DNA of 24,830 nucleotides from Nitrosarchaeum sp. Lineage in GTDB: Archaea; Thermoproteota; Nitrososphaeria; Nitrososphaerales; Nitrosopumilaceae. This document shows, one piece after another, positions 2,135 through 22,779 of the stretch. The first letter of the stretch is position 1. Each line of letters begins with the position of its first letter. The position numbers were made by a program, and so were the translations under genes. A model generated the notes under the pieces. It worked only from the letters and a program-made list of their open reading frames with translations, was not told the origin of the DNA and did not search any database. Where the stretch lies: assembly GCA_018334095.1 (NCBI GenBank), contig JAGXTE010000001.1, forward strand, positions 30,001 to 54,830, read 5' to 3'.

Positions 2135-2163
2135 ATTATTTCCAGCTAAATCTCAAGAGGATT

Positions 2164-2894: not shown

Positions 2895-3124
2895 GAATTT
2901 CCTTGAATATACCAATCAAGGTAAGGCATCATGGTCTTGCAGAACTTTTTCTTTTCAGCCTCATCAGTCATGCCTGAAACACCATTAATCTTTCCTTTTA
3001 GGTAATCCTGAGTAATTTCACTTTTAAGGTATGGCTGAATCTGGTTTAGAATTGCTATTATTTTATCAGATGTGACATTATCAAAATCATTTAAAATTTC
3101 TTTGACTTGATCTTGCAACGTCAT
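2891..3124 (-). CDS. hypothetical protein
   Basis: 77-aa ORF that fits tightly between its neighbours. No family recognised. Confidence 0.4.
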   Translation of the reverse strand: MTLQDQVKEILNDFDNVTSDKIIAILNQIQPYLKSEITQDYLKGKINGVSGMTDEAEKKKFCKTMMPYLDWYIQGNS

Positions 3125-3155
3125 TATTCAAACTAGAATAAATCCCATTATTACT

Positions 3156-3404
3156 TTATTGTTTGTTTTCCAAAATTAGGTCATTGTCATCCCAAGTTAG
3201 ACGGAATTTTCCAACAACTCGGAATAGTTGTATTCTACCACCTTTTTTGAACTTTAGTTTGTATGAGTTCTGAGACGTATCATAAATCTCTAAAGAAACA
3301 CCGTCTGTAATTGTTTCAAATATTACAGGGTTGCTTGATAGTTCTTTCCACTCTGTTGGTTCAAAATCAATATAGAATTTAGTGTAAAGAAGTCCCATGT
3401 TCAT
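3156..3404 (-). CDS. hypothetical protein
   Basis: 82-aa ORF. No family recognised. Confidence 0.4.
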   Translation of the reverse strand: MNMGLLYTKFYIDFEPTEWKELSSNPVIFETITDGVSLEIYDTSQNSYKLKFKKGGRIQLFRVVGKFRLTWDDNDLILENKQ

Positions 3405-3442
3405 AGACGGTTAAACATTCCCGAATAAAAACGAGTCTCAAG

Positions 3443-4027
3443 TCATTCTACTTCTTGATAGCTTTTAGGCATACTTGAATAAAGATAGCTCATCACTGTT
3501 GGAAAAATTGTATCGTGATCCTTATCATTTTGAATTATGACAAATACCTGATGGATTAATTGCTGGATTTCCAGATGTTCATCACGGTATAGAGTTTTTT
3601 TTGGATTTTTGTTTGAATCCAAAAGTGTAAACCCGTTGTCAGTTTGCAGCAGATTTTTCAGTACAGAATTTGTGATTTTGATCTTTTCATTTACATCTTT
3701 GTGGCGGTAATCTTCCTCTAGTTTTTTTATGTAATTTTTAAGATTGTGAAATGCAGTGTTTGTTATTCTTTCAACATGCTGCTGAAATTTTGTAGCATAG
3801 TTTGATGTTGGAACATAAAATTTCATGTTTGCTTTTTTCTCTACAAAGATTATCTCTTTGTCAATAAGCGAATCCCTAGTCTTCTCAAATGTTGTTTTTG
3901 CCATATACTCGGGAACAATCTTCTTTAAGAGAGCATTGTGATGCATCTCAGGGTTGTTTTTTATGCATTCAAAAATTATTCTTTCACGCTCATAGAGTTC
4001 TGATGTAGGCTCAATATGGGTTATCAT
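3443..4027 (-). CDS. putative winged-helix DNA-binding protein
   Basis: The N-terminal segment IIFECIKNNPEMHHNALLKKI...TFEKTRDSLIDKEIIFVEKK resembles a wHTH, and the C-terminus is helical. The assignment is by pattern only. Confidence 0.5.
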   Translation of the reverse strand: MITHIEPTSELYERERIIFECIKNNPEMHHNALLKKIVPEYMAKTTFEKTRDSLIDKEIIFVEKKANMKFYVPTSNYATKFQQHVERITNTAFHNLKNYIKKLEEDYRHKDVNEKIKITNSVLKNLLQTDNGFTLLDSNKNPKKTLYRDEHLEIQQLIHQVFVIIQNDKDHDTIFPTVMSYLYSSMPKSYQEVE

Positions 4028-4113
4028 TACTAGGTCGACCTAGTATATACAGGTCATATATTTATCATTATCTACTATTCAGTTAGGCATCACGAAGAGA
4101 ATGTGCTAATTAA

Positions 4114-4497
4114 TCAGACAAGAGAATCTTGAATCTTCTTTGTGTCAGTGAATTGTCTGAATTGGATGATTTTGTGGTCTTTAATTTGGTAAACGTGTGA
4201 AAAGGGAACATCAAACTTTCTACCTTTTTTTGAGATGCCTTGGTATCTTCCAATGACTATAACATGATCATCTGCATCCAAAAACTGGTCAGTAACTGCA
4301 TGAAACTCTGAAAAATTTTTCAGCATGCCAGGAAAATAATCTCCAAAGATTGCATTTAATCCGACATATCTTCCACTGTTTGGCATTCCATCCATTGTTA
4401 TCCACTCTGTTTTTTCATCGCAAAATAAAGGATATTTTTCAGTGTCTTTATTTTTAAAAGCGTCATAGAATTTTTTTATCAGCTCAATGTTTGACAT
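4114..4497 (-). CDS. SnoaL/NTF2-like fold protein
   Basis: N-terminal IELIKKFYDAFKNKD... and a ~127-aa length are typical of SnoaL-like/ketosteroid-isomerase-like domains. Confidence 0.6.
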   Translation of the reverse strand: MSNIELIKKFYDAFKNKDTEKYPLFCDEKTEWITMDGMPNSGRYVGLNAIFGDYFPGMLKNFSEFHAVTDQFLDADDHVIVIGRYQGISKKGRKFDVPFSHVYQIKDHKIIQFRQFTDTKKIQDSLV

Positions 4498-4591
4498 GTT
4501 GTTTTAGTTCATCATATTTTCATAAACGTTACGAATACAATGTTAATTTATTTATAAAAAAGATATATGTATAAAATTTAAAATATGTTTT

Positions 4592-5020
4592 GTGAAAGAT
4601 ATACCGTTTGACTTTCATGGTGCAAAGTTTACAATCAAGGTTTTGACTTCTGAGACAAATGGTATCTATACCATTTTAGATGTGATTCATCCTCCAAATT
4701 TAGGACCGGCATTGCACATGCATCCCAAAGGTCCTGAAACCTTTTACATAGTTGACGGAGAGTATGAATTCATTTTAGATGATAAAACAATAATGGCAGA
4801 AACTGGAGATATGATTTTTGTTCCAAAGGGAAAGCCACACAGGTTTGTAGTAGGAAAAAATGGCGGTCATGCACTTGTAATTAGTCCGCCAGATCTAGAG
4901 TTTTACTTTTACAAAGTTAGCGAATTACTTGCAAAAGGAGTCGTATCATATGAGACTGAATCAGACATTGGAAAGAAATATGGTCAGATTTTCTTGGATG
5001 GTACAAAGCACTGGGAATAA
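4592..5020 (+). CDS. cupin domain protein
   Basis: Cupin motifs are HMHPKGPETFYIVDGEYEF and GDMIFVPKGKPHRF. The start is GTG. Confidence 0.8.
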   Translation: MKDIPFDFHGAKFTIKVLTSETNGIYTILDVIHPPNLGPALHMHPKGPETFYIVDGEYEFILDDKTIMAETGDMIFVPKGKPHRFVVGKNGGHALVISPPDLEFYFYKVSELLAKGVVSYETESDIGKKYGQIFLDGTKHWE

Positions 5021-5024
5021 TCAA

Positions 5025-5252
5025 TTATTTTTTGGTGTTTTTTGAATCTCTTTCTGAAATTAAAAATTCTAGTTTTTTATGCAAATCATCCAAGTTACGT
5101 TCCAATCTTCTTAGAGTTTCAATCAGGGCATCAGATTTAGACTCTTCAAGTTCTTTGGTTACAGATTCCTTATGTTTCTCAAGCTTCTTGATTCTTTGCT
5201 CTGTCTCAAAAACGGCAGTTTGTAACGCCTCAAAATCATTTTCAAAACCCAA
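5025..5252 (-). CDS. small coiled-coil protein (hypothetical)
   Basis: 75-aa charged helical ORF. The overlapping + strand ORF 5032-5283 has S/L-rich low-complexity composition and is taken as the spurious partner. Confidence 0.4.
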   Translation of the reverse strand: MGFENDFEALQTAVFETEQRIKKLEKHKESVTKELEESKSDALIETLRRLERNLDDLHKKLEFLISERDSKNTKK

Positions 5253-5304
5253 TTTATTGATTTTTGGAAAATTCTGGACTTAAAGATTTTGCAATTGTTG
5301 AAAA

Positions 5305-5514
5305 TTACATTAAATGATTAAATTCAGAAAACATTATCATGATAATTCCAATAGTTACATCGATGATAAAATGAATAATGCCAACAATGAGACAGTTTTT
5401 CCCTAATTTTGGATCATCTTTTTTTACAATAAAGTATGAAACTAGACCTCCAATAATTCCAAAAATAATTGGCAAAACATACCATGCCTTTGATCTTCGT
5501 TGCGGTTCACTCAA
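5305..5514 (-). CDS. small membrane protein (hypothetical)
   Basis: 69-aa ORF with two hydrophobic helices. Confidence 0.45.
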   Translation of the reverse strand: MSEPQRRSKAWYVLPIIFGIIGGLVSYFIVKKDDPKLGKNCLIVGIIHFIIDVTIGIIMIMFSEFNHLM

Positions 5515-5551
5515 TAGGACATGGGATTATGGAACAAACTTAAGGGTTTGG

Positions 5552-5758
5552 TTACTTGTCAGACTGAATTAGTTGGATAAGACGTTCGATGTTTTTGATA
5601 TCATTTAATTCATTATTTAGAAGGGATTCGTATCTTCTCATCTCAACTAATGAGGTGATATTTCTTAGTGCTTCTTGAAGCTCTGAAATCTTTGTTCTTG
5701 TGACATCAGCCCAAGTTGCAAGCATCTCTAATGCCTCTTTGACATCAGCTTCTTTCAT
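5552..5758 (-). CDS. small helical protein (hypothetical)
   Basis: 68-aa ORF on the same strand as its neighbours. Confidence 0.4.
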   Translation of the reverse strand: MKEADVKEALEMLATWADVTRTKISELQEALRNITSLVEMRRYESLLNNELNDIKNIERLIQLIQSDK

Positions 5759-5816
5759 ATTATTCCATAGAGGATCTTTTAGATTAATTTTATCATTAGA
5801 TAAATTGGGTGCTAGT

Positions 5817-6674
5817 TTATTTTGTGATAACCCAATCGTAAATAATTTTTATTTGCTCCAAGACTATTGCGTTTATTTCAGCGATTTTTTTCTCTAATTG
5901 TGAGTTGTATTCTTTTAATTCTTTATTTTCTTTTTCTAGTTCTGCTATTCTTTTCTCTAGTTTGATTACCAAACCATTGTCTGCTGATGGTTGAGCATTT
6001 GGAGCAAGATTTGCATCATAGTATGGTTTTTTATCATAATGTCTGTTATCATATTTCTCAAAAAATGAAACCACTTGTTTTGCCTCGTCATATGTCAGAT
6101 CAGTCTCAGATACAATCAATTCCAAGAGACTATCAATTTGGCCAGACTCCCAAAGACTTTGGATCTTCTCCATTGGGATAGAATCCATTATTCTTTGGGC
6201 CATTGGCTCTATTGCCTTCCACTGAGGATCATCAAGATATGGCTCCTTTGGTGGATGTGGTTTTACATAATCATCTTTTGAATCTTGGTACTGGGGTTTT
6301 GTCGGAGTTTGGTTGATTTCATTTTTAAAAATTTTATGTAGCTCATCTAACTCTTGCATCTTCATAAATTCCAGATTCTTTCTCTTTTTGTCAAATTCTG
6401 CGATGAATTGATTGAACATCGAATCAATCTCAGATTGGGTAAGGTTTGGATTTGCCTCAATTTTATTATAAATTTCCATCTTTACTTGACGGTACTCTTT
6501 TTCAAGATTCTCAAACTCTATCTGATAACGTTTTTCAATTTCATGTCTTTTTTCTTCATATTTTCTTTTGACATCACTAGAGTTCTCATATGATGCTGTA
6601 CTTTCTGCCATCGCAGGGCTAATTCCTACAAGCAGTACTGCAAACAATCCAAGAAGAGATAATGCCACTTTCAT
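5817..6674 (-). CDS. secreted coiled-coil protein (hypothetical)
   Basis: Signal peptide MKVALSLLGLFAVLLVGISPAMA, followed by E/K-rich heptad-like regions at both ends. Confidence 0.6.
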   Translation of the reverse strand: MKVALSLLGLFAVLLVGISPAMAESTASYENSSDVKRKYEEKRHEIEKRYQIEFENLEKEYRQVKMEIYNKIEANPNLTQSEIDSMFNQFIAEFDKKRKNLEFMKMQELDELHKIFKNEINQTPTKPQYQDSKDDYVKPHPPKEPYLDDPQWKAIEPMAQRIMDSIPMEKIQSLWESGQIDSLLELIVSETDLTYDEAKQVVSFFEKYDNRHYDKKPYYDANLAPNAQPSADNGLVIKLEKRIAELEKENKELKEYNSQLEKKIAEINAIVLEQIKIIYDWVITK

Positions 6675-6824
6675 TAATTTTTGAACAAAATTTCGGTATT
6701 AAAAGGGAAACATGTAATGTATAGTAACAGTAATAATCTAAAACAAAATTCACGCCTAAATTACATGTTATAGAGTTCATTTTTAATGAAATTGATACAC
6801 AAATCAGAAATTAAATCAGCAAAA

Positions 6825-7370
6825 TCATACGATAGTGAATTTTGTGCCGAGTGTTTTGCCCATGACTTCCAAAGCATATCTGCAAACATTTGGGTTTAGT
6901 GTGAAAAATCCTCTGAATTTTCCATCCTCATATTCCTCTGCAATCAAACCAAATGGCCCATATGGTCCTCTAGTGATTACACTCCAAACATCATCAAGCT
7001 CAGTATCTTTGCAATTAATTAGATTAATTTTTGGAGGAGTTTTAATCTCAGTTTTTCCGTAATCTGCAATTACCCAAATTTTTGGTATTTGCTCAATTAG
7101 TTTCTGATATCTTTTTTCTACAAATTTGTATCTTGCAATTTTTTCAAAAGTTGCAAGCAGTGGTTGAGCATTATCTTGTGCATGTTTTTCAATTAACTTG
7201 CTAATGTGAAGTAGTTGTTTTCGCTCTGCATGAAAATTATGATATCCAGCTTCGATGAATTTATCCATACTCCACATTTGAAGCATTGAAGGATCTTCAT
7301 CATGCCATTCTGCAAGCTGTGGAAATTGTTCCCAGACTTTACCTAGAAAACCAAGATATGGTGCCGCCAT
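6825..7370 (-). CDS. hypothetical protein
   Basis: 181-aa ORF with normal globular composition. No family recognised. Confidence 0.55.
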   Translation of the reverse strand: MAAPYLGFLGKVWEQFPQLAEWHDEDPSMLQMWSMDKFIEAGYHNFHAERKQLLHISKLIEKHAQDNAQPLLATFEKIARYKFVEKRYQKLIEQIPKIWVIADYGKTEIKTPPKINLINCKDTELDDVWSVITRGPYGPFGLIAEEYEDGKFRGFFTLNPNVCRYALEVMGKTLGTKFTIV

Positions 7371-7466
7371 CCATTTATCAAAGTAAAAATCAGATATAAG
7401 TTAATCCTTGCTTATGATTTTTGATAATTACAAATTGTTTTTATGGTGTAAGGTAATACAATAGTC

Positions 7467-7871
7467 ATGGGACGGTATGAGAAAGTTCTCAATATGCTAA
7501 TGGATTATGATGAGTCAATACGTCTAGCAATAATTAGCAATACATCAGGGGACATATTATGGCATTCTAAAAGAAACGATGCAAAACTTCAAGTTCCAAT
7601 TGCTGAAACAAAAAAAGCACTCAAGCGCGAATCAGATGACTGGGTTGATAGGTGTAAAACTGCAGATCGAGCAGCTTTAGGTCGTGCCCTTTATCACATA
7701 ACGTCATTTAAGAAGACAAAAAGAGTCACATTGCCAATTGATGCATTTCATCTATTGTTTATGAGTGTGGATAATACCCCTATGAAAAATACAAAGAAGA
7801 AAAGTTATGGAAAATTAGTCGAGATGGGAAAAATATTGTCAATAGTTGACTTTGTAAACACATTTGAATAA
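7467..7871 (+). CDS. hypothetical protein, tandem paralog A (possibly Roadblock/LC7-like)
   Basis: 134 aa, and alignable end to end with the next ORF (YEKVLNMLMDYDESIR.. / ..EMGKILSIVDFVNTFE). Confidence 0.55.
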   Translation: MGRYEKVLNMLMDYDESIRLAIISNTSGDILWHSKRNDAKLQVPIAETKKALKRESDDWVDRCKTADRAALGRALYHITSFKKTKRVTLPIDAFHLLFMSVDNTPMKNTKKKSYGKLVEMGKILSIVDFVNTFE

Positions 7872-7944
7872 AACAGTTTTTCCAAAGTTTGACACTAGAA
7901 TAATCATTTAGAATATTTATTAACACAAATTCACAATATACCAC

Positions 7945-8349
7945 ATGGACAAATATGAGAAACTTCTCAACATGCTAATGGATTTTAATGACAACATCAG
8001 ATATGCAGCAGTTGCAGACAGTGATGGTCAAATAATGTGGAACAGTCAGAGAACTGGATTAAAAAATATCGTACCACCAGAAGAGACAAAACAGACTATT
8101 GGTAGAGCATTGCGCGGTTGGAAAGAAAACGAAACTGTAAAAAATTATCTTGGTTCAGGACTATATTCAATTTCATCATATGAAAAAATAAAGAGAATAT
8201 CAGTTCCATTGGATGGTGGAAAGATGTTGTTTTGTACAGTTAGCAATGAGCCACTAGGAAAATCATCAGACGGTAAGAAGGGATACGGTCACATTGCAGA
8301 GATGGGAAAGATACTATCAATAGTTGATTTTATTAAAACTCAAAAATGA
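7945..8349 (+). CDS. hypothetical protein, tandem paralog B (possibly Roadblock/LC7-like)
   Basis: 134 aa, the same length and same conserved blocks as 7467-7871 (YEKLLNMLMDFNDNIR.. / ..EMGKILSIVDFIKTQK). Confidence 0.55.
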   Translation: MDKYEKLLNMLMDFNDNIRYAAVADSDGQIMWNSQRTGLKNIVPPEETKQTIGRALRGWKENETVKNYLGSGLYSISSYEKIKRISVPLDGGKMLFCTVSNEPLGKSSDGKKGYGHIAEMGKILSIVDFIKTQK

Positions 8350-8441
8350 ACGGTCATTAACCTTCATTGTTAATATTTAAACTGGGTGCTGTTTTTTTCA
8401 AAAAAATCTAGGATTTAATCAGTGCTTCAAAGTAAATCTAG

Positions 8442-9773
8442 TTGCAAATAGAACATTTGCTTTTAACACTTGTACTTTCCCTAGCGGTAGCTCGAATATT
8501 AGGTGAATTATTCCGCCGGATGAAACAACCCTCCCTTGTTGGAGAATTGTTGGCAGGAGTGATTTTAGGACCATCGCTTTTGGCAATTCTTTCACCTGAT
8601 GATTCCATGACAATTCTTGCAAATGTTGCAGTGTTTTTCTTGATATTCATGGCGGGTCTAGAATTGAATCTCAGCGAGATTCGAAAATCAACTAAACCCG
8701 CATTTTTACTTGCCATTGTAGGATTTACCATCCCATTTGTATCTGGATATTATACCAGTCTGTTTTTTGGTCTAGGACAAATACAATCACTTTTTGTGGG
8801 TTTGCTATTATCAATTACAGCAATTCCAGTGAGCTCGATGATACTTATGGAATTTGGAATCTTGAAGAGCAAAATTGGAACAACTGTGATTACTGCAGCA
8901 CTAATCAATGACATCATGGCAATGATCGTATTTTCATTAATTCTGATTTACCCAACAGGCACACAGACTTCATTTGATTATTATGAAGTTGGATTAATGG
9001 GTGCAAAAATTACTATCTTTTTTGCAGTACTTGCAGCCGTAGTTTTTGTCATGAAAAAGACCAACATTACTTCTCAGAGAGTTGAGCCATTAGTTGAAAA
9101 ACTAAAAACAAAAGAAGCAAGCGTGGGAATTCTTTTATCACTTGGAATTTCGATTGCCTTGTTTGCACATTACTTTAATCTTCATTTTATTATTGGTGCA
9201 TTTTTTGCCGGATTAATTTTCGGCAGTAAGTTTTGGGGAGAAAAGATACACAATCATAATTCTAAATTAATCTCTGGAATTACGTTTGGCTTTTTTGCGC
9301 CTCTTTTCTTTGTTTTCATAGGTTTAGAGTTTGATCTTATGTCACTGACAAATTCCGCACCACTCTTTCTGGCGTTATTTTTTGTGGCAGTAGCATCAAA
9401 AATTGTAGGTGGATTTCTTGCAGCAAGAATTACAAGATTTTCAAATCATGAAAGCGTAGCCATAGGTTGTCTTATGAATGGACGGGGGATGGTAGAGATG
9501 GCTATTGCGTCAATTGGATACTCATTAGGATTAATTGATACGACATTGTTTTCAGTTGTAATCGCAATAGGCTTTCTTACCACAATAATTACTCCTGTAA
9601 TTGCTAAACCGTTTATCTACAAAACAATATCTAAACGAGTACAGGATTCAGAAATAAAACAAATGTCGGAATCAAAGAGAAATTTCTTATCTCACCACAT
9701 AACTTATCGTAAATTTCATGATCTTATAGATAAAACATATTTTGAAAAATTTTTAGGTCATAAAACAAACTGA
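8442..9773 (+). CDS. cation:proton antiporter (CPA2 / Na+/H+ exchanger family)
   Basis: 443-aa polytopic membrane protein. The N-terminus LAVARILGELFRRMKQPSLVGELLAGVILGPS is characteristic of Kef/NapA-type exchangers. The start is TTG. Confidence 0.85.
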   Translation: MQIEHLLLTLVLSLAVARILGELFRRMKQPSLVGELLAGVILGPSLLAILSPDDSMTILANVAVFFLIFMAGLELNLSEIRKSTKPAFLLAIVGFTIPFVSGYYTSLFFGLGQIQSLFVGLLLSITAIPVSSMILMEFGILKSKIGTTVITAALINDIMAMIVFSLILIYPTGTQTSFDYYEVGLMGAKITIFFAVLAAVVFVMKKTNITSQRVEPLVEKLKTKEASVGILLSLGISIALFAHYFNLHFIIGAFFAGLIFGSKFWGEKIHNHNSKLISGITFGFFAPLFFVFIGLEFDLMSLTNSAPLFLALFFVAVASKIVGGFLAARITRFSNHESVAIGCLMNGRGMVEMAIASIGYSLGLIDTTLFSVVIAIGFLTTIITPVIAKPFIYKTISKRVQDSEIKQMSESKRNFLSHHITYRKFHDLIDKTYFEKFLGHKTN

Positions 9774-9848
9774 ACTTGAAATTTTATTTTCTTTTTTTAA
9801 ATGAAATGATCTTAGCAAAAAGATGTACGTCATGATATTTCTAAATTT

Positions 9849-10334
9849 TTAATCAGAATCCAACGGTTGAGTATAATCGTCTTCAGCATTTGCACCTTCA
9901 GATTTTTTTCCATTTCTTCGTGAAATTTTTTGAAAATGAGGAATACGTGGAGTAAGTGCACATACCACAATTCCAATAATTGCAAGAAAGTAATATTCAA
10001 ATCCAATAGCCATACCAATGGAGGCTGCAAACCATATGCTTGCAGCTGTTGTGAGATTGTAGATGTCTCTTCCTCCTTTTATTATCATGCCTGCCCCCAA
10101 AAATCCTATTCCACCAACAACATATGCTGCAATTCTTGTTGTGGATGCAGGATCAACCTGTGAGGACAAAAATGTGAATACCATTGAACCGCATATGACA
10201 AGAGTGTGAGTGCTTATCCCAGCTGGTTTGCCACGACTTTCTCTTTCAATGCCTATTATTATACCTGCAAGCAATGAAAAACCAAAACCAATTAAAATTC
10301 GAATCTCCGTTTCGGTGATAAAATCTTGAATCAA
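9849..10334 (-). CDS. MgtC/SapB family membrane protein
   Basis: LLAGIIIGIERESRGKPAGISTHTLVICGSMVFTFLS matches the MgtC family signature region. The start is TTG. Confidence 0.8.
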   Translation of the reverse strand: MIQDFITETEIRILIGFGFSLLAGIIIGIERESRGKPAGISTHTLVICGSMVFTFLSSQVDPASTTRIAAYVVGGIGFLGAGMIIKGGRDIYNLTTAASIWFAASIGMAIGFEYYFLAIIGIVVCALTPRIPHFQKISRRNGKKSEGANAEDDYTQPLDSD

Positions 10335-10629
10335 CTATTTCCGATTCGGATTGATTGAGCATAAAAAATTTACGGAATTTAAATTGTTACAGTGGATATT
10401 AAAAAAGTTTTAGATGTTGACATTAGTTTGCTATGGCATTTCCATTAAACAATTTTTTAATTTACATAAAGTATGTTCAAGATTAACTGAAAATACGAGA
10501 TAATTAAAGTTGATCTTGTGTATATTATAAAATATTACAGCAATCACGATATGCATCGATTAGAAACTATTTTTGATTCTGACTTTTCATAAATCCTTAA
10601 TTTCTATTAGATGTCATAAATAAATTTGA

Positions 10630-11040
10630 ATGAAAAAGATAAAGAATTTATGCAAAATAATGAATTTAAAATCATCTATGAAAGAAATAACTCCAAATGA
10701 CATACTAAAAGATCATACTCCAAATGTCAAAAACCTGGTAAAACAATTGCGTAAATTCATTTTAAATACGATCCCAGAAGTTTATGAAAAGGCATTACCC
10801 GGATGGCATGCAATTGGATTTAGACATCCAGAGGGAGGACATTTTTGTGCAATATTCCCATTCAAAGATTCGGTAAAACTTTATTTTGAATATGGAGTAC
10901 ATCTAAAAGATCCTCATAGAGTATTAGAAGGAAATACAAAACAAGTGCGTTACATTACATTTAAAAAAATTACAGATATTCAAGAGATAATTCTAAAAAG
11001 CCTTGTTCAACAATCAATACTCCATCTTAGTAGAAAATAA
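10630..11040 (+). CDS. DUF1801 (YdhG-like) domain protein
   Basis: Matches the pattern ..LVKQLRKFILNTIPEVYEKALPGWHAIGFRHPEGGHFCAIFPFKDSVKLYFEYG... The start may be an internal Met (MKEITPND). Confidence 0.55.
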   Translation: MKKIKNLCKIMNLKSSMKEITPNDILKDHTPNVKNLVKQLRKFILNTIPEVYEKALPGWHAIGFRHPEGGHFCAIFPFKDSVKLYFEYGVHLKDPHRVLEGNTKQVRYITFKKITDIQEIILKSLVQQSILHLSRK

Positions 11041-11068
11041 CACATCTTCAACACTCCAATTCATATCC

Positions 11069-11119
11069 ATCATTGTGTACCGTCTATTTTCTTGCCTAAA
11101 GGAGGGGCTTTGCCTTTTT
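11069..11119. repeat. degenerate copy of the casposon right TIR (footprint of an earlier insertion)
   Basis: atcattgtgtaccgtctattttcttgcctaaaggaggggctttgccttttt aligns with the right TIR atcatctagttacctgtctaaatccacacctaaaaagggggcattctattttt at roughly two-thirds identity. Shared blocks are atcat, acc-gtcta, cctaaa, ggggc and ttttt. It abuts the left TSD copy in the same way the real right TIR abuts the right copy. Confidence 0.6.
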
Positions 11120-11132
11120 ATTCTCTATCGAT
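11118..11132. repeat. target-site duplication, left copy (ttattctctatcgat)
   Basis: Exact 15-bp match to 22831-22845. Identity extends to 18 bp (11115-11132 = 22828-22845) because both are preceded by ttt, so the TSD/TIR boundary is ambiguous and the TSD is 13-15 bp. Confidence 0.85.
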
Positions 11133-11185
11133 AAAAATAGAATGCCCCTCTTTTGGGCGTGATTTTAGACATGTAACTAGATGAT
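11133..11185. repeat. casposon left terminal inverted repeat
   Basis: The reverse complement of aaaaatagaatgcccctcttttgggcgtgattttagacatgtaactagatgat matches 22780-22832 at 46/53 positions. Confidence 0.85.
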
Positions 11186-11244
11186 ATGAAAAAGTATGAT
11201 TTGTTGGAAATATCTTAAGTAACCTTGAATATTATCTCAAATAA

Positions 11245-11814
11245 TTGTTATCTGAAATTTATTTTAAAGAATTTCTGAAAAACCCATTTTTTTGGTGGAG
11301 TGCTTTCATAGGAATTATAACAACTTGGATTTCATTTGAACCATTTTTTAGAATTGTTGAAGCAATTTTGTTAGAACAACTGTATGTTCCAATCTTGTAT
11401 GGATGTGTAGGATTATCTCTCTATCTAATGATTTATCCAATAAAGAGCAGATTGAGAAACCTGAAACTTCAGAAAGAAACTAAAAAAGAATTTCTTGTTT
11501 ATACATTTATGATAGTAGCAATAATTACAAATACCGTATACTTTTCATCAGATCCAGCTTTTATGTTAACAAAGGCACAGAGTCAAATTGTATCTGATAA
11601 AGTAATTTTAGAAGAAGTGGGGGACCTAAAATTATGGGCAGAATATCTTGTGTTGCCTTTTCTTTATGCAATCATGTTAGCACAGAGTAGAAAACTCTTG
11701 TATGGAAATGAAGAAATGAAATTTGACAATATCGAAAGTAGCTGGAAAATATCTATTATCATTACAATACTTGTAGGCGGTGCATATCTTTTGTTTAAAT
11801 TAGTGTCTGGATGA
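11245..11814 (+). CDS. polytopic membrane protein (hypothetical), immediately upstream of cas1
   Basis: 189 aa with a TTG start and four to five hydrophobic helices. Its stop at 11812-11814 lies 1 nt before the Cas1 TTG start, so co-transcription is likely. Confidence 0.5.
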   Translation: MLSEIYFKEFLKNPFFWWSAFIGIITTWISFEPFFRIVEAILLEQLYVPILYGCVGLSLYLMIYPIKSRLRNLKLQKETKKEFLVYTFMIVAIITNTVYFSSDPAFMLTKAQSQIVSDKVILEEVGDLKLWAEYLVLPFLYAIMLAQSRKLLYGNEEMKFDNIESSWKISIIITILVGGAYLLFKLVSG

Positions 11815-11815
11815 T

Positions 11816-12886
11816 TTGACGCTTAAAGGCCATTCAAACCATTACAACATAAAATTCCTCAAAGGATACGGTCATTCCATATCTGTTAAAGATTCAAAGA
11901 TAATCCTCAAAGATTGTCATGATCCTTTCACTCCTCCAAACATTGAATCATGGTACATCAAAAGTATGCCATATGAAAAAATTGTTTTGCAAGGAAAAGG
12001 ATACATCTCGACTGATGCTTTAGCCTTACTTTCTGAGAATAATCGAAATGTCATTTTATTAGATAATCATGGAAAACCTGTAACCTATCTAAATCCGGTA
12101 ATGGAGTCTCTAACTGCAACTAGAAACAGAATTGCTCAATACGATACATTTCGTAATCCGGAGAAATGCCAATTTTTACAGAGACAAATTGTAAAGTCAA
12201 AACTAGAATCTCAAATTAAATTCCTCAAACTAACTGAGCGAGAGGAAATAAAAGAAGCCATAGAAAAACTAGAAACTCATTTGACTAATCTAGATCATTT
12301 CACTTCAATTAGTAACGAATCAAAGACATCTCATATCTACTTTAGAGCATTTGCAAAAATAATTCCAGAGAGATATGAGTTTCATTCTAGAAACCCATCG
12401 TATGTAGGATTGGCAAAAAACAAAGCTACTGATATTATCAATGCATTACTAAACTATGGTTATGCAGTACTAGGTGGAGAAATTTCCAAGTTTATCAACG
12501 GATTTGGGCTTGATGCATACTATGGATTTTATCATAAATCTCACACTGGTTTTCAGCCTCTAGTTTATGACATGATGGAACCATTTAGGTGGCTAGTCGA
12601 TTATACCGTATTTCGAATTGCAAACATCAAAGACCACAAGCAGAGAATTAGGCTTGATGAATTTACTCATACTAGAGACGGAATTATAGTAATGGAGTAT
12701 AATTTGATCAGGAAATTTCTAGAGTTACTTGAAAGAACATTCCAGTCTGAAAGAAGATATGGGTTTAGACATGGTGCAAAAACAAAAGATGGGTTGAAAA
12801 ATGTTCAAGAGATTACGATTGCAAAGATTACAGTTCAAAATTTAGTAGAGTATTGTTTAGGAAAACAAAAAGACTTTAGAATCTAA
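11816..12886 (+). CDS. cas1: Cas1-family integrase (casposase)
   Basis: Cas1 signature blocks are NESKTSHIYF (E168), INALLNYGYAVL, DAYYGFYH (H240) and LVYDMMEPFRWLVD (D252/E255). The N-terminal beta-rich region (YNIKFLKGYGHSISVKDSKIILKD) is typical of Cas1. The start is TTG. Confidence 0.9.
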   Translation: MTLKGHSNHYNIKFLKGYGHSISVKDSKIILKDCHDPFTPPNIESWYIKSMPYEKIVLQGKGYISTDALALLSENNRNVILLDNHGKPVTYLNPVMESLTATRNRIAQYDTFRNPEKCQFLQRQIVKSKLESQIKFLKLTEREEIKEAIEKLETHLTNLDHFTSISNESKTSHIYFRAFAKIIPERYEFHSRNPSYVGLAKNKATDIINALLNYGYAVLGGEISKFINGFGLDAYYGFYHKSHTGFQPLVYDMMEPFRWLVDYTVFRIANIKDHKQRIRLDEFTHTRDGIIVMEYNLIRKFLELLERTFQSERRYGFRHGAKTKDGLKNVQEITIAKITVQNLVEYCLGKQKDFRI

Positions 12887-13212
12887 GGATTTACTTCTAT
12901 CTCTTGTTGTTCCCAGTATTTCATTAAATCCCAATTGGCATCTTTAATGTTGTCCTGATATTTTGATCTTTCTTTCCAATCTTCTACTGTTGAAGCACAT
13001 TTATTTTTTAGAAATGTTTCAATAATCTCTTTACCTTCTTCAGTTGTCATTGAATCACTATAGGTTTTATCGCCCCATTTATCGTATTGTTTAGCACAAT
13101 CAAAAGTTAGAGTACTTACAATTTCATTACTATTGTTGGAGACAAATTGAATAGACAATACTGCAATCACAGAGCAAACAACTGCTATTGCTATAATCAC
13201 AACAGGTTTCAT
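12883..13212 (-). CDS. small signal-anchored/secreted protein (hypothetical)
   Basis: 109 aa with an N-terminal hydrophobic helix (MKPVVIIAIAVVCSVIAVLSI). It makes a 4-nt convergent overlap with the cas1 stop. Confidence 0.45.
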   Translation of the reverse strand: MKPVVIIAIAVVCSVIAVLSIQFVSNNSNEIVSTLTFDCAKQYDKWGDKTYSDSMTTEEGKEIIETFLKNKCASTVEDWKERSKYQDNIKDANWDLMKYWEQQEIEVNP

Positions 13213-13245
13213 TATTTTTTCAAGGTATCTTGTTCAAATAAGGAT

Positions 13246-13581
13246 TTAGTAATGTGACCTTCTTGTGTCATTAGAATCATGTGTCCAGTGATTGTGATTT
13301 CTGCCACAGTTTGTACACATGCAACAGTTACAATGTTCTTTTGCCATGTTTTTTAATCCATCCCATAGTTTTTTTTGTAAAATCATTGCCATTCCAATTA
13401 CAATTAGACCAATAACAACTGGAAGGGTTTGAGAATTTGGATATTTTAAATCATATAATGAAATGATAAACCCAATCGCTACTAATATTATTCCAACAAA
13501 CTGGATTTTTGTCTTTAATTTTATCTTTTTTTTGTATTGATTATTTTTATTATGGCTTCTTTTTCTACGCCCAAAACCCAT
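13246..13581 (-). CDS. small membrane protein with Cys/His-rich C-terminal tail (hypothetical)
   Basis: 111 aa with a basic N-terminus, two TM helices, and the tail HCNCCMCTNCGRNHNHWTH. Confidence 0.45.
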   Translation of the reverse strand: MGFGRRKRSHNKNNQYKKKIKLKTKIQFVGIILVAIGFIISLYDLKYPNSQTLPVVIGLIVIGMAMILQKKLWDGLKNMAKEHCNCCMCTNCGRNHNHWTHDSNDTRRSHY

Positions 13582-13618
13582 GATTTTGTAAATATTTTAT
13601 GAACTTAAAATTTTTTGT

Positions 13619-13933
13619 TTGAGAAATCTATTTGATATAGTAACTCATAGTAAATTCATGCCTACTTTCAGTGATTTTGATGCAAATAAAAGACATGAAG
13701 AATCTTTACAAAATGACAAAATTTTGAAAGATGGTCTAGCCGAACTACTTTCAAAAATACAAGATTTAACAGATAAATTAGATAAATATGAGACTCGAAA
13801 TTCTGAATATCTTAGAAAATTACTTTTGATGGTTTCGGAGTTATTTCAGCAAGGCAAAATCAATATCGATACATTTAATCGATTAGATGAATTTCTTCAT
13901 GACTGGCTTGATGAAAGTCTAGATTCTAAATAG
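13619..13933 (+). CDS. hypothetical helical protein
   Basis: 104-aa ORF with a TTG start (alternative Met at MPTFSDFD). No family recognised. Confidence 0.4.
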   Translation: MRNLFDIVTHSKFMPTFSDFDANKRHEESLQNDKILKDGLAELLSKIQDLTDKLDKYETRNSEYLRKLLLMVSELFQQGKINIDTFNRLDEFLHDWLDESLDSK

Positions 13934-14059
13934 AATATTAGTTGGTAATTAATAAAAATAATTATTTTAAAAATGTGATTATTTATTGGAATGAATATTT
14001 TGAATCTTATGATGTTTTAAATAATTAAAAATATAAAATAAAATTTTGAAAAAAATGAA

Positions 14060-14797
14060 TTAGTGTTTTTGTTTATATTTTTTTATTGGTTTTATAAAAT
14101 CATCAACAAACATTTCTAACATTTTTGGATCAAGTCGAAAGGATTCAGCAAATAATCGTGCAAACACCAACCCTCCAAGTAAATCAAACGAGGATGACCC
14201 TTTATCACTTAGTGAATCTAAAACTTGTTTCTTATATTTAGTAATTTGTTTAGTCATAGTAGTAAGTTTACGCTTACCGGAAACCCTACTGACCATCATC
14301 GACTGCATTTCATATATTGAAATCCAATGCAAAAACTTCATTACTTCTTCTACTTTTGTTGAATCATCTGCATCAGAAGATATTGTTTTCAAAATTCCTG
14401 TGGTGCCTATTTTGATATTTTCCATTGTTTCTATAAACTCCTCAACTTGTTCATCAGACATAGTTGTAATTTTTGAATTTATAGTGTAAATTGTGTTGTT
14501 TCTTGCAATGACGTGTTTTATCACGATTTTATTTTGGACTAATTCATCTAATATTTCTCGAAAAATTCGTTCAGAACAAACCTTTTTGTCAATCACGATT
14601 ATTCTTTCTAATTCTCCATATCGAATGCTGTCGGTATTTTTTAACACCGTATTGATTTCATCTCGTGCCTGATTTCGTATTGTACCGTATTGCATATACT
14701 GTACCGTATAATTTCTACCGTTATAACTATTGCAATAACGTAAAGTTGGCATGAAATGTGGGAAGATTGGTAGAACATCTACCAAAAAACAAACCAA
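14060..14797 (-). CDS. putative winged-helix transcription regulator
   Basis: The wHTH-like segment is INTVLKNTDSIRYGELERIIVIDKKVCSERIFREILDELVQNKIVIKHVIARNNTIYTI. The real start is probably ATG 14695 (MQYGTIRNQ...), because the longer ORF would overlap the divergent gene at 14751. Confidence 0.55.
   Translation of the reverse strand: MVCFLVDVLPIFPHFMPTLRYCNSYNGRNYTVQYMQYGTIRNQARDEINTVLKNTDSIRYGELERIIVIDKKVCSERIFREILDELVQNKIVIKHVIARNNTIYTINSKITTMSDEQVEEFIETMENIKIGTTGILKTISSDADDSTKVEEVMKFLHWISIYEMQSMMVSRVSGKRKLTTMTKQITKYKKQVLDSLSDKGSSSFDLLGGLVFARLFAESFRLDPKMLEMFVDDFIKPIKKYKQKH
14646..14725. promoter_or_regulatory. cluster of accgtat direct repeats at a divergent promoter (operator-like)
   Basis: accgtatt at 14646 and 14684, accgtata at 14703, accgttata at 14717. 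A perfect 10-mer tgtaccgtat occurs at 14681-14690 and 14700-14709, 19 bp apart. The two copies fall in different reading frames of the minus-strand ORF, so this is a DNA-level repeat. Confidence 0.45.
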
Positions 14798-14996
14798 ACT
14801 CAGTCATTCAGATGCAGTTTCAACTGATTTTGGAGTAAGGAAGATCAGCAATCAAAATTTTTCCAAAGTGATTGCACTTCCAAAAACTGCAATAGAAAAT
14901 CTTGGTGGAGATTCAACTGAAATGAAAGTTGAACTAATACAAGAAAATGGAGAAAAATTCATCAAACTTTCTCCAATTAGAGGTGATAATTTTTGA
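14751..14996 (+). CDS. AbrB/SpoVT (MazE-like) DNA-binding domain protein
   Basis: VRKISNQNFSKVIALPKTAIENLGGDSTEMKVELIQENGEKFIKLSPI resembles the SpoVT-AbrB looped-hinge-helix domain. Confidence 0.55.
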   Translation: MKCGKIGRTSTKKQTKLSHSDAVSTDFGVRKISNQNFSKVIALPKTAIENLGGDSTEMKVELIQENGEKFIKLSPIRGDNF

Positions 14997-15328
14997 GTAC
15001 AACGCAAATACCATACATTTGCTGGGGAGAATACAAATCCAAAGACCAAAACAACCCAGATAGATTAGATATCGAAGTAACTAGTTTAGAGCAGTTTGAA
15101 AGTGAACTAACAACAAATGTTCATGTCAAACAAAAGATTCAAGGAGAATGTCAAGAAAGAATTCTACCGTTAAAGTCTCATGAATCGCCAAACAATTCAT
15201 TGTTAAAACAATGGAATGATCTAGTCAAAAGAAAACGAATCATAGTCGGAAGCAAACTGGTGATTCACACATATCTTGGAATTTCAAAGCATGGTAGAAC
15301 AATTCGAAAATTCCATGTAGAGGTTTAA
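14993..15328 (+). CDS. hypothetical protein
   Basis: 111-aa ORF with a TTG start. It overlaps the previous stop by 4 nt, which suggests operon-style coupling. Confidence 0.45.
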   Translation: MSTTQIPYICWGEYKSKDQNNPDRLDIEVTSLEQFESELTTNVHVKQKIQGECQERILPLKSHESPNNSLLKQWNDLVKRKRIIVGSKLVIHTYLGISKHGRTIRKFHVEV

Positions 15329-15347
15329 TCCTCTTTTTTCTTTTGAT

Positions 15348-15656
15348 ATGAGCGATAAAGATAAACTTCTAGAACAACTTGATGCCTTAAAATTATTTCC
15401 AAACAATAAACATGTAAAGGAACTACGAAAACAAATCAAATCAAAATTAGATAAATTGAAAAATAAAAAACCTAAAGAAAAAATACAAAAACAAACCAGA
15501 GCAGGCAAGTTAAGAAGATACCACAACTATATTAGACAAATTAGAAACAACTTTCCCAATCTATCATACAACCAGATTAGAAGTCAACTATCTCAAAGAA
15601 GACAAGGAAAACAGGTATCAATTCCTGATGTGATATGGCAGAATCCATCCCCGTAA
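15348..15656 (+). CDS. small highly basic protein (hypothetical; terminal-protein or DNA-binding candidate)
   Basis: 102 aa, K/R-rich, overlapping the pPolB start by 22 nt. Confidence 0.5.
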   Translation: MSDKDKLLEQLDALKLFPNNKHVKELRKQIKSKLDKLKNKKPKEKIQKQTRAGKLRRYHNYIRQIRNNFPNLSYNQIRSQLSQRRQGKQVSIPDVIWQNPSP

Positions 15657-17419
15657 CTGATTACAAGAATCTGGCCAAATTACGCACAAAAAGGCCACAA
15701 AACAGAGATTCTGCACAATCAAAGATTCGCAAAATCAATGCACTTGATACAGAAACCTACAATGGGGATATCTTTCTAATAGCAGACTCTGATGGTCTAT
15801 ATCTTGATGATATAACTTCAGATAATGTAATTCACTTTTTATTTTCAAAAAAATATCAAAATGCTTGGAATTTTTTTTATAATTTGCAATATGACGCTGA
15901 AGTGATACTAAAGTTATTGGGAAATGAACTATTTCGATACAAACAAACTGGAAAATTAGAATTCCTATACAAACAATTCAAAATAGAGTACATTCCATCA
16001 AAATTACTAAGAATAAAAAAAGGCCACCACAGCGTATTATTTTTTGATATTGCTCAGTTTTACACAAAATCATTAGTTGATGCATATGAGCAAAACATTG
16101 GAGAATTACCCAAGACATATTTGGAGATAAAAGAAAAACGCTCTCACTTTACAAAGCGATTTTACAATCACAACAAGAAAAAAATTAGAAGTTACTGTAT
16201 TACTGATTGTATTCTTACAAAGAAACTATCTGAGCACTGGATTGCACTGTTTAATCAAGCATTTTCGTTTTATCCTGCAAAATGGTCTTCATCAGGATAC
16301 TTGGCAGAAAAAGTACTAATCAACAATGGAATATTTTTTCCAAAATTTGATTCTATACCATACCAAATTCAGGATTTAGCGTTTAGATCATACTTTGGGG
16401 GAAGATTTGAAATGATAAAGCGGGGATTTATTGGCAAAGCGTACCTTTATGATATTAATTCAGCATATCCACATGCCATATCTCAACTCCCTGATCTAAA
16501 TGATGGTAGATGGATTAAACGAAAATCCATTTATGATAAAGCAAAACTTGGTTTCTTTAAGATTCTAGCAAACATCCCAGATGATAAAATCATCCCACCA
16601 TTTGCCTTTAGAGCAAATCATAACATTGTATTTCCATCTGGAAAATTCATTACATATTGCACATTGCCTGAACTTTTAGCCTGCAATGAGCCTAGTTTTT
16701 ACAAAATTTTGGAAGGATACCAGTTTGTGCCAAATTCTAATGTCTTACCATACAAAGATTTCATAGAAAAATTATATCAAAAACGTCTAAAACTAAAACA
16801 AGAAAACAATCCATTACAGCAACCAATCAAAATTATCTTAAATTCCATTTATGGCAAAACAGGACAAAAAATAAACAGAATAATTGGAAATTTATTTAAT
16901 CCCGTAATATTTGCAAGCATCACAGGACATACTAGAGCACAACTATACCAATTCATTATAAAAAACAATCTAGAAAAAAACACTATAGCATTTGCCACAG
17001 ATTCTATCTGCATAACAAAAAAACTTGACATCAACTCTACTAAACTTGGAGAGTTTTCATTTGATGGAAAAGCAAATGATGTTTTTTATTTACAAAATGG
17101 ATTTTATAGATTCAATGGAATGTGGAAGCAACGTGGATTTGGTAAACTAGGATCTAGAGAAATAGAACATCTAGATACTAAAGAAAAAAATGGCAAGCTA
17201 ATTGCAAAGATGCAAGTTTTACGAAACCCTAGATTACGAAGCTCAATAATTCAAAACAATATTAAAAATATTGGAAATATCTCTACAATTAGTAGAGAGA
17301 TTAATCTTAATGCTGATAGGAAAAGACTGTGGCTTGATACAATTACTAACATAAATCAAAAATCAGCTAATGAGTCAGTACCGATTTCTTTGAATCATTT
17401 TACTAAAGAGCAAATATGA
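15635..17419 (+). CDS. polB: protein-primed family B DNA polymerase (pPolB)
   Basis: Motifs are ExoI ALDTETY, ExoII NLQYDAEVI, ExoIII YCITDCILT, Pol A YLYDINSAYPHA, Pol B KIILNSIYGKTGQ and Pol C FATDSICI. The short 594-aa size is typical of protein-primed PolBs. Confidence 0.9.
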   Translation: MAESIPVTDYKNLAKLRTKRPQNRDSAQSKIRKINALDTETYNGDIFLIADSDGLYLDDITSDNVIHFLFSKKYQNAWNFFYNLQYDAEVILKLLGNELFRYKQTGKLEFLYKQFKIEYIPSKLLRIKKGHHSVLFFDIAQFYTKSLVDAYEQNIGELPKTYLEIKEKRSHFTKRFYNHNKKKIRSYCITDCILTKKLSEHWIALFNQAFSFYPAKWSSSGYLAEKVLINNGIFFPKFDSIPYQIQDLAFRSYFGGRFEMIKRGFIGKAYLYDINSAYPHAISQLPDLNDGRWIKRKSIYDKAKLGFFKILANIPDDKIIPPFAFRANHNIVFPSGKFITYCTLPELLACNEPSFYKILEGYQFVPNSNVLPYKDFIEKLYQKRLKLKQENNPLQQPIKIILNSIYGKTGQKINRIIGNLFNPVIFASITGHTRAQLYQFIIKNNLEKNTIAFATDSICITKKLDINSTKLGEFSFDGKANDVFYLQNGFYRFNGMWKQRGFGKLGSREIEHLDTKEKNGKLIAKMQVLRNPRLRSSIIQNNIKNIGNISTISREINLNADRKRLWLDTITNINQKSANESVPISLNHFTKEQI

Positions 17420-17634
17420 AAATAACGAAAATCATAAGATAATTATTTATCTGCACGAAATATGCGAGATTAAGCTTTTGAAGCAAATTACGCATGAATT
17501 TTGATGCTTTTATGGTATTTTCATGTACGAAAATAAAACAGTTATTCACGAGAGAGTTACGAAGAAGAGCTAATCTCGCAACCTGCGAATGAAACTTTCA
17601 TGAGTGAGAAATACGAAGAAGAGCTTTTGAAGTA
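17420..17634. other. 215-bp repeat-rich non-coding spacer between convergent genes
   Basis: The 14-mer tacgaagaagagct occurs at 17558-17571 and 17612-17625. The 11-mer agcttttgaag occurs at 17473-17483 and 17622-17632. An imperfect inverted repeat pairs tgcgagattaagct (17463-17476) with agctaatctcgca (17568-17580). acgaaa(a/t) motifs recur throughout. Confidence 0.5.
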
Positions 17635-18489
17635 TTATTGTAATGAAAAACCACACTTATTGCAAAATGAAGAATCTGTTGGATTAACATTTTTACATTG
17701 TGTGCAGATGGTTGTAAATTTATGCCCACATTTATTACAAAACTTTGCATCAATTGGATTAAAATTATTGCATGATGTACACTTGATTTCTTGCTCGCGT
17801 TTCTGTTTTTCATTATCTTGTTTTCTTAGTTTATCACTCCATTCTTTTTGGGTTTTGATTTGATATTTTACCAGTTTAGCCAATCCGTTCGGATCTGGTA
17901 CAGCATAAAACGTAAAAACAATTTCTCCTTCTGCCATAATATTTACATCGCCAAACGTTTGACTTTCACCAGTACTAAAACTACCTGAACTTCCTACAAA
18001 TGTTCCACTAGCACCAATTCCTGCAAATGTTCCCTCACGTTGAGATTCAGATATTCTTTTTTGATTATTGACTATAACATCAATGTTTTCAGATAATGCA
18101 TACATTGACATCTGATGTTCTTTTAAATCATAAAAATAACATCTGTATTCTGTTAAAGCGTCATACGCTCTTAGTGTTTTATTGACTAACCCTTCTTCTT
18201 TTTTGCGATACCATAAAACTTGTTCATTTTTACATTTTATTGGAAGAAATGGATTTACCCAAAAAGCTTCAATTCTTTTTGTGTCATCATTTTGAAATAA
18301 TACTGGATACTCGGATGTGATATTTTTTTCTTCTAATAATTGTCGACTTTTTTCGATAGATAGAGCCATGTCTCTCTTTGATTTTTCTGGAACCTCTGAA
18401 GCTGGAAGTAAAAATATATCTTCAAGTTCAAATTTTTCTTCATTTTTTTTAACTTCTATCTGCTTTTCTTTTTTACCAAATAATCCCAT
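17635..18489 (-). CDS. double-zinc-ribbon protein with uncharacterised N-terminal domain
   Basis: The C-terminus CTSCNNFNPIDAKFCNKCGHKFTTICTQCKNVNPTDSSFCNKCG is two tandem CxxC..CxxC ribbons. The N-terminal ~220 aa are unassigned. Confidence 0.65.
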   Translation of the reverse strand: MGLFGKKEKQIEVKKNEEKFELEDIFLLPASEVPEKSKRDMALSIEKSRQLLEEKNITSEYPVLFQNDDTKRIEAFWVNPFLPIKCKNEQVLWYRKKEEGLVNKTLRAYDALTEYRCYFYDLKEHQMSMYALSENIDVIVNNQKRISESQREGTFAGIGASGTFVGSSGSFSTGESQTFGDVNIMAEGEIVFTFYAVPDPNGLAKLVKYQIKTQKEWSDKLRKQDNEKQKREQEIKCTSCNNFNPIDAKFCNKCGHKFTTICTQCKNVNPTDSSFCNKCGFSLQ

Positions 18490-18607
18490 AAATTTGAGAA
18501 CATATACAAATTCTTAAGGATTTATTCATTTGTTATATTCATACTTCATTCGTACAAATTTTATGAATTTACGATAAACTAAAATTCATAATTTTTTATG
18601 AAACCAT

Positions 18608-19420
18608 ATGGGTTGGAAAAAACTTTTAGGTGATATTAAAGAAAAATCAGAAAAATTTGTTGAAGAAAAAAAGAAAGAGCGCAATTTAAGACGAATAGAA
18701 CAACAGGAACAAGCAGAACAAAGAGCAGAGTATGAGAATACTGTTAACAAATTACTGGATAAATTTGAAATTCCAGATCTTGATGAATTTTTAATGAAAT
18801 ATCTTAACAATAAACCAGAACCTAAAATAGAAAAAGACCCAGATATAGGAAAAATAACTAAGATACGACCAGGTAGACGAGAATATCTTGATTTTGTTTG
18901 GAGTAATTTTAATGAAAAAGATATCACATATGATCAACTAAAGAATTTTGCTTTAAAAAAGAAAATTATTACTCCAAGTTTCTTTGGAAACGAATCAGAT
19001 GACACTTATGAAAAAAGTGACTTTGAATCAATTATTAATGCAATTCGAGTTGGATTTGAACCTGAAAAAATTACAGATGAAGAACATCTTGAAGCACAAT
19101 TAATGATATTTTTGAAAGCAAAATTTCCAGACAGAAAAATAAGAAGGCAAGTTACAATTCAAGGAAATGACCGACTCGATATTTTAATTGATGATAAATA
19201 TGCCTTTGAACTTAAAGTCCCAAAACAAAGAACAGATTTAAGAAATCTAGGTGCTCAATTAGAAGAATACAAAGAAATGTATCCAAACGTATGTGGATTG
19301 ATCTTTGAAGATATCAATGAAGGAAATCTTTCACAAGATATCATGGATTATGTTGATAAATACAAAAAAAATTATGGGATATCTACAATAGTTTTAGGCG
19401 GTACCAAACGATATTCATAA
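18608..19420 (+). CDS. PD-(D/E)xK (RecB-like) nuclease-fold protein with charged N-terminal region
   Basis: Ordered motifs are EEHLEAQL (E), RLDILID (D), FELKV (ExK) and AQLEEY (QxxxY), the RecB-family/restriction-endonuclease-like pattern. There is no Cas4-type Cys cluster. Confidence 0.55.
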   Translation: MGWKKLLGDIKEKSEKFVEEKKKERNLRRIEQQEQAEQRAEYENTVNKLLDKFEIPDLDEFLMKYLNNKPEPKIEKDPDIGKITKIRPGRREYLDFVWSNFNEKDITYDQLKNFALKKKIITPSFFGNESDDTYEKSDFESIINAIRVGFEPEKITDEEHLEAQLMIFLKAKFPDRKIRRQVTIQGNDRLDILIDDKYAFELKVPKQRTDLRNLGAQLEEYKEMYPNVCGLIFEDINEGNLSQDIMDYVDKYKKNYGISTIVLGGTKRYS

Positions 19421-19485
19421 TAATACAACATCAGTTATTCTTTGAGAATTATTCTTGGTAAATTATAAGGATTTATGAAATTAAG

Positions 19486-19513: not shown

Positions 19514-19543
19514 ACTTTTTCAATAGAATCCCAATAATAGAGC

Positions 19544-22778: not shown

Positions 22779-22779
22779 A

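Follow-up and report, generated by a model that had tools for sequence, protein, structure and literature searches.

The CRISPR adaptation machinery has been proposed to descend from casposons, and solo TIRs beside a repeated target have been put forward as intermediates on the way towards CRISPR repeats. Among described systems, the closest are the solo TIRs of family-2 casposons in Methanosarcina mazei, which occur across the majority of the clade's genomes and have been read as degraded full elements (PMC4779613); and the tandem family-1 casposons NitNF5-C1/C2 at ef-2 of Ca. Nitrosopumilus adriaticus NF5 (Krupovic et al. 2019, PMC6563490), decaying adjacent casposons having been noted in 2014 (PMC4046053). 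For the AR1 casposon of Ca. N. koreensis, a 13-bp TSD at the EF-2 end, ATTGATAAAGAGT, has been mapped experimentally (Wang et al. 2021, PMC8464041); the AR1 casposase needs this 13-bp sequence together with a minimal T3 flank, while accepting ends that vary (PMC8464041). Solo TIRs and tandem ef-2 casposons are therefore already known, and the relic that we describe here is a well-supported but ordinary example. In the literature that we searched there was no report of family-1 solo TIRs, nor, apart from a mention of Cas1, of casposons at this site in Nitrosarchaeum.

The window, a stretch of 24,830 nucleotides (C1:30001-54830) from a 1.68-Mb, 69-contig Nitrosarchaeum genome, contains a complete family-1 casposon at 11133-22832 (+), recognised from its Pfam domains, TIRs and TSD. 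Genes for Cas1 (11816-12886; Pfam Cas_Cas1, E=3.5e-49) and a protein-primed PolB (15635-17419; Pfam DNA_pol_B_2, E=4.8e-23) lie between its two TIRs, with a TSD copy on either flank—the combination that defines the family—and the remaining cargo includes NERD, tyrosine integrase and SIR2_2 genes (Pfam). The left, Cas1-proximal TIR occupies 11133-11185 (+; inverted repeat, profile E=3.1e-5), with the subterminal motif ATGATTTGTTGGAAA located nearby at 11196 by motif search; the right TIR, at 22780-22832 (-; inverted repeat and profile), abuts EF-2, the inverted repeats 11131-11185 and 22780-22834 being 87% complementary.

The conserved casposon target is the EF-2 gene, which has its 3' part in the window at 22831-24828 (-; Pfam GTP_EFTU, EFG_III, EFG_IV and EFG_C) and a frame of 736 aa in the genome. 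An exact direct repeat of 18 nt, TTTTTATTCTCTATCGAT, is found at 11115-11132 and 22828-22845. By analogy with the AR1 TSD (PMC8464041), the TSD proper would be the 13 bp ATTCTCTATCGAT within it and the T5 run the terminus of the TIR; the initial annotation had worked with a 15-mer. The right TSD copy (22833-22845) encodes the last codons of EF-2 (…IDRE), whose stop codon is composed of one TSD base and, as its last two, bases of the right TIR; the left copy, its exact repeat at 11120-11132, is common to the resident casposon and to a solitary TIR on its other side.

This solitary TIR lies on the minus strand at 11060-11119, where nhmmer profile, shuffle tests and alignments to the TIRs of relatives (below) show it to be a true TIR and the real leftover end of an earlier casposon-type element. 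Its terminus, at 11119, faces EF-2 and abuts the left TSD; read on the minus strand it starts AAAAAGGCAAAGCCCCTCCTTTAGG, the whole sequence from the TSD inward being AAAAAGGCAAAGCCCCTCCTTTAGGCAAGAAAATAGACGGTACACAATGATGGATATGAA. Ungapped, TSD-anchored comparison of the first 38 nt from the terminus gives 25/38 matches to the right TIR, bearing out the roughly two-thirds identity, in the same orientation and register, noted at the outset, and 27/38 to the reverse-complemented left TIR. Allowing four 1-nt indels, the alignment to the left TIR extends to 44/61 (72%), such that the relic, at ~60 nt, has the length of a full TIR and is slightly longer than the 11069-11119 originally assigned to it. 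Two opposed element ends with a single TSD copy between them, as in a tandem array, are thus present at 11060-11185, and the relic combines the features of a casposon solo TIR (sensu Krupovic 2016): homology, a position at the target site and the lack of a partner or genes. Since the repeat shared across the junction is only 18 bp, a chimeric join of the assembly at this relic-TSD-TIR junction is unlikely.

We searched genomes of the genus for junctions of the same kind, in which the TSD core carries a TIR on both sides, and found TIR-TSD-TIR junctions in seven relatives (G022, G015, G028, G012, G010, G005 and G025), or eight genomes of the genus. Two of these (G022 and G015) contain two full casposons with a single TSD between them; in G028, G012 and G010 a full casposon adjoins EF-2 and is followed by the TSD and then by a decayed remnant, an arrangement of casposon, TSD and decayed remnant that is also probable for G005. 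The window junction is 78.8% identical to that of G022 over 80 nt and 94% identical to that of G005 over 51 nt. The serial insertion originally proposed for this site is thereby supported, as tandem casposons and their junctions are seen directly in relatives. A solo TIR after EF-2, called where no partner TIR lay inside the fetched stretch of 16 kb, occurs in at least ten genomes (G001, G002, G008, G009, G013, G016, G020, G024, G027 and G030) and is the commonest state of the EF-2 site in the genus; the 3' end of EF-2 is a casposon hotspot in Nitrosarchaeum.

Where remnants retain a piece of Cas1, this is always the N-terminus—residues 1-18 to 1-39 in eight, 1-81 in G028 and 1-225 in G020—which implies decay by deletions that spare the EF-2-proximal end. 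In four remnants (L044, L049, L061 and L069) Cas1 is truncated at nearly one point (residues 1-29/31), pointing either to one ancient deletion that all four inherited or to a hotspot for deletion. We also see a C-run followed by a T-run ~17 nt downstream of the EF-2 stop, within the TIR (window 22818-22833, and in the flanks of relatives). The conserved TIR core may double as a transcription terminator for EF-2, a candidate role that, if real, would explain the survival of the EF-2-proximal end during decay.

Taken as a whole, we regard it as highly probable that the relic is a solo TIR left by an older family-1 casposon or a non-autonomous relative thereof, and that the present casposon then inserted at the same 13-bp target. 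The earlier element would have integrated at ATTCTCTATCGAT, overlapping the EF-2 stop codon; its interior and far end would then have been deleted, leaving the EF-2-proximal end, as in many sister genomes, to supply two bases of the stop codon. With the 13-bp sequence and adjoining T-run intact, the site would have stayed a competent target, and entry of the present casposon into the 13-bp sequence, duplicating it, would yield the order relic TIR - TSD - casposon - TSD - EF-2. Since no other state is as frequent in the genus as a solo TIR, the resident most probably entered a site of which only the TSD and a solo TIR were left. The sequence of insertions, how the deletion arose and what the T-run does are our inferences, the last drawn by analogy with the AR1 casposase. 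Every TIR terminus examined here ends in T5 running into the TSD and native flanks start with the complementary A5, so that a site which is occupied or carries a relic would still offer an intact target; this would explain why the site has been reused time and again.

The same T-run, preceding both TSD copies of an occupied site and making either of them reusable in principle, would also allow the reverse order, in which the resident arrived first and a second element entered the distal TSD copy and later decayed to a solo TIR; moreover, the two TSD copies are identical, so that the repeats themselves give no dating. We nevertheless consider this improbable: the distal element has decayed beyond recognition whereas the resident is intact, and every mixed array in relatives has its intact element EF-2-proximal and its remnant distal. 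It is also at odds with the closest casposon-free relative examined, G021 (~91% nucleotide identity to the left flank, identical EF-2 C-terminus), which has directly after the TSD a 19-nt stub, AAAAAGGCAGAGCCCGTCC, of the same TIR subtype, matching the relic at 12/14 informative bases before giving way to unrelated sequence, and overlapping an open frame. This short stub, of putative orthology to the relic, favours a relic that predates insertion of the resident, and with it the order first envisaged, with the older element arriving before the present one.

The regularity of the mixed arrays, with the intact element proximal and the remnant distal in five out of five (firm: G000, G028 and G012; probable: G010 and G005), could have a more general meaning. 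We tentatively raise the idea, rating it at a little under even, that the EF-2 site is a polarised array, in which newcomers always enter the EF-2-proximal 13-bp copy and push older elements outward to decay; three firm and two probable arrays are only suggestive of such a polarity, and selection on EF-2 might, alternatively, keep just the proximal repeat intact. Polarity in mixed arrays is possibly new; if true, a polarised array would mirror in vivo the way in which CRISPR acquires new spacers at the leader-proximal end, with the older elements reduced to solo TIR-repeat units.

A different kind of objection is that the relic is native flank: DNA of no special origin that lies downstream of EF-2, perhaps belongs to the target that is recognised, and is resembled by the TIRs for that reason. 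We therefore located EF-2 in 30 genomes of the genus and compared the sequence past its stop codon (several relatives are fragmented MAGs, with the EF-2 contig ending at the TSD). The site is empty in four genomes (G004, G019, G023 and G026), where an AT-rich flank follows, with no G/C-rich TIR core and no match to the profile; in about twenty others a TIR comes directly after the TSD. All flanks, those of the empty sites included, do have AAAAA after the TSD, and two of the empty sites read AAAAATAGAA, like the start of a TIR; but the CCCC core and everything further inward are missing from empty sites, indicating that the relic is not ancestral flank. Furthermore, the TIR-like subtype after EF-2 varies among close relatives (G030, G021 and G016), as expected for independent elements, and the same terminus is found at a different target in G016. 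We consequently judge native flank to be very unlikely. It had been set down beforehand that casposon-free relatives carrying this sequence next to EF-2, with no element nearby, would speak against an older insertion; the four empty sites carry no relic, and that reading survives.

Could the relic instead be a by-product of the resident, that is, an end duplicated or rearranged during aberrant transposition or replication of the present casposon? Its orientation and register, the same as those of the right TIR, fit such an origin; however, its identity with the resident TIRs is only ~66-72%, other lineages having more similar TIRs, and its terminus is of subtype GGCAAAGCCCC where the resident has TAGAATGCCCC (also given as AAAAAGGCAAAGCCCC for the relic and AAAAATAGAATGCCCC for the resident TIRs). 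We accordingly give this explanation, too, very little probability. The best match of the relic is a TIR in G025 (33/42), closer than either resident TIR and nearly identical in its core, CTCCTTTAGG.A.GAAAA.AGACGGTA. In addition, the first 16 nt of the relic recur unchanged at both ends of an element in G016 (L071 3683-6803; G016:C1, about 161.7-164.8 kb), TIR-bounded and 3.1 kb long, which carries Cas1 (87% identical to the Cas1 of the window) and two other ORFs, lacks PolB and has the 13-bp target/TSD ATTGATAGTCAAT; this element has the look of a minimal casposon, one that probably does not replicate itself. Judged by these comparisons of termini, the relic belongs to a different TIR lineage from the resident casposon, and its initial description as a degenerate third TIR of a related element holds as regards the TIR itself, with the refinement that the relic is not a decayed copy of the present TIR.

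Its significance was assessed in two ways. Local alignment gave z=11.6 against the left TIR and z=6.2 against the right, with dinucleotide shuffles as the reference, and 38-mers as similar to the TIRs number just 5 (left) and 7 (right) among 3.36 million in the genome, true TIRs included. Secondly, and as the strongest test, one that does not depend on this genome, an nhmmer profile built from 31 TIR termini, all from other genomes of the genus and with the TSD excluded, recovered the relic from the 1.68-Mb genome in register, with model position 1 placed exactly at 11119; the other matches in the genome were both resident TIRs, a TIR pair on contig C57 and one terminus on C54. Both the shuffled-sequence control and the sensitive profile search first suggested for this site therefore came out in favour of the relic. 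Chance similarity within AT-rich intergenic DNA, to which a plain identity of only about two-thirds with the right TIR might lend some colour, has a negligible probability when the observed score is attained by 0/10,000 shuffles against the left TIR and by 1/10,000 against the right, and when the profile returns E=0.001 genome-wide at the single predicted position and orientation.

Turning to the older element itself, we see that most of it is deleted. A search of contig C1 from 1 to 41060 (regex with <=3 mismatches; nhmmer --max) found no partner TIR and no third TSD copy, the best hit having E=1.2; the failure to find an older left TIR in the original, shorter search is thus repeated over 41 kb to the left, and the third copy of the target sought at the same time is absent from those 41 kb of contig. 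Neither did any ORF of >=60 aa from the loci of 25 relatives reveal a Cas1 or PolB fragment in window 4076-11132. No remnant of a Cas1 casposase or protein-primed PolB, the genes of family 1, lies left of the relic; what does represent the family is a TIR of family-1 type, inserted with a 13-bp TSD at the 3' end of ef-2. The Cas1 gene of the older element may have been deleted, and an autonomous casposon is what we infer, as a putative identity, from 60 nt only.

Immediately left of the relic there is a strain-specific block, 10409-11059 (+), with a breakpoint at 10408 relative to G016; within it lies a DUF1801 gene (10630-11040), whose end is 20 nt short of the relic. The block together with the relic (10409-11119) is unique to the present genome; the DUF1801 gene is absent from 29/31 genomes of the genus and present in 2/31, the only other copy being a pseudogene in G010 with no TIR after it. 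This block may have been carried by the older element as cargo, or a rearrangement may have introduced it. We considered DUF1801 as typical casposon cargo and rejected it: its homologues (73% and 54% identity) have ordinary metabolic genes for neighbours and neither Cas1 nor PolB close by, and such ordinary chromosomal contexts preclude a confident assignment to the older element. Window 10409-10640 was likewise rejected as a homologue of the casposon left-end remnant found in G016 at this very breakpoint, or of the resident left end, its scores being no higher than the shuffle mean.

Further left, from 4076 to 10408 (no strand assigned), the block structure given by blastn is that of a variable mosaic, whose blocks 4536-5035, 5797-8366 and 8367-10408 are present or absent according to the relative. 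Block 2-5796 is common to G021, with the short contig of G030 spanning just 4581-5800 of it; 4536-5035 is missing from G016 and G001; 5797-8366 is unique to the present genome; and 8367-10408, carrying a Na+/H+ exchanger and MgtC, is common to G016, where it comes directly after a 107-nt casposon end. Homology to all distant relatives stops at about window 4075, next to a genus-conserved neighbour, the homologue of ORF 3443-4027, which in G003 starts ~140 bp from the EF-2 stop. The comparison of synteny proposed at the outset has thus separated a conserved neighbour at 3443-4027 from a region, running from ~4075 to EF-2, that is variable throughout, the sequence between the two genes changing from genome to genome. 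A conserved ATCGACAAATAAAAA near the neighbour gene was dismissed as an inverted TSD relic, as it has the wrong orientation and is conserved as native sequence.

Two observations were made within the mosaic. The Na+/H+ exchanger gene near EF-2 has opposite orientations with respect to EF-2 across genomes (window 8367-10408; L045, L059, L061 and L067) and has MgtC as its partner in G000 and G016 alone, which suggests inversion of this block or its movement together with casposon remnants. Separately, window 7467-7871 and 7945-8349 are two tandem paralogous ORFs of 134 aa that belong to no Pfam family; a homologue of the first is part of the casposon remnant in G010, and contig C36 of the present genome carries another.

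Outside the window, the same genome contains one further casposon and possibly another. A second complete family-1 casposon (C57:9533-21114) has near-perfect TIRs of ~55 nt (AAAAAGAGACTGCCCCCC...) and a 13-bp TSD, ACCAAACATCATC, overlapping the stop codon of an NDH-2-type oxidoreductase gene. Compared with the casposon of the window, its Cas1 is 39%, its PolB 70% and its NERD gene 98% identical, the last figure suggesting a recent exchange of cargo between the two. A third casposon-like element may lie on C54 (61405-63512), where the contig ends in a PolB fragment (32% identity) that comes after a TIR-like terminus bearing a C11 run.

When Nitrosarchaeum genomes are annotated, what lies between EF-2 and its conserved neighbour is best treated as a casposon ‘graveyard’ and not as core genome. 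Its relic-carrying site remains a usable target, a situation reminiscent of Tn7 islands at attTn7 and of tyrosine-recombinase arrays, where insertion is repeatedly directed to a site beside an essential gene and older copies decay; the integrase and end structure of those elements are, however, unrelated to what we see here. Of closer systems, the AR1 TSD ATTGATAAAGAGT is identical at 10/13 positions to ATCGATAGAGAAT here and both are flanked by a T/A run; unlike AR1, the EF-2 side lacks TTT and the T-run is on the downstream (TIR) side, and whereas the AR1 biochemistry used a bare target, the present one bears a relic.

The tandem casposons of NF5 share with our locus the target gene, the family and the reuse of the site that generates a TIR-TSD-TIR junction; both NF5 elements are complete, whereas the distal element here, in the genus Nitrosarchaeum, is reduced to a 60-nt TIR. 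In this last respect the relic is like the solo TIRs of M. mazei—a single TIR at a target site, beside the target motif and with no casposon genes—but unlike those family-2 examples it belongs to family 1, of the protein-primed PolB type, in an ammonia-oxidising archaeon, it targets a protein gene at its 3' end, and it stands back to back with an intact casposon across a common TSD. The locus and the survey of the genus thereby extend solo TIRs and TIR-TSD-TIR arrays from the family-2 casposons of Methanosarcina to the family-1 casposons of ammonia-oxidising archaea.
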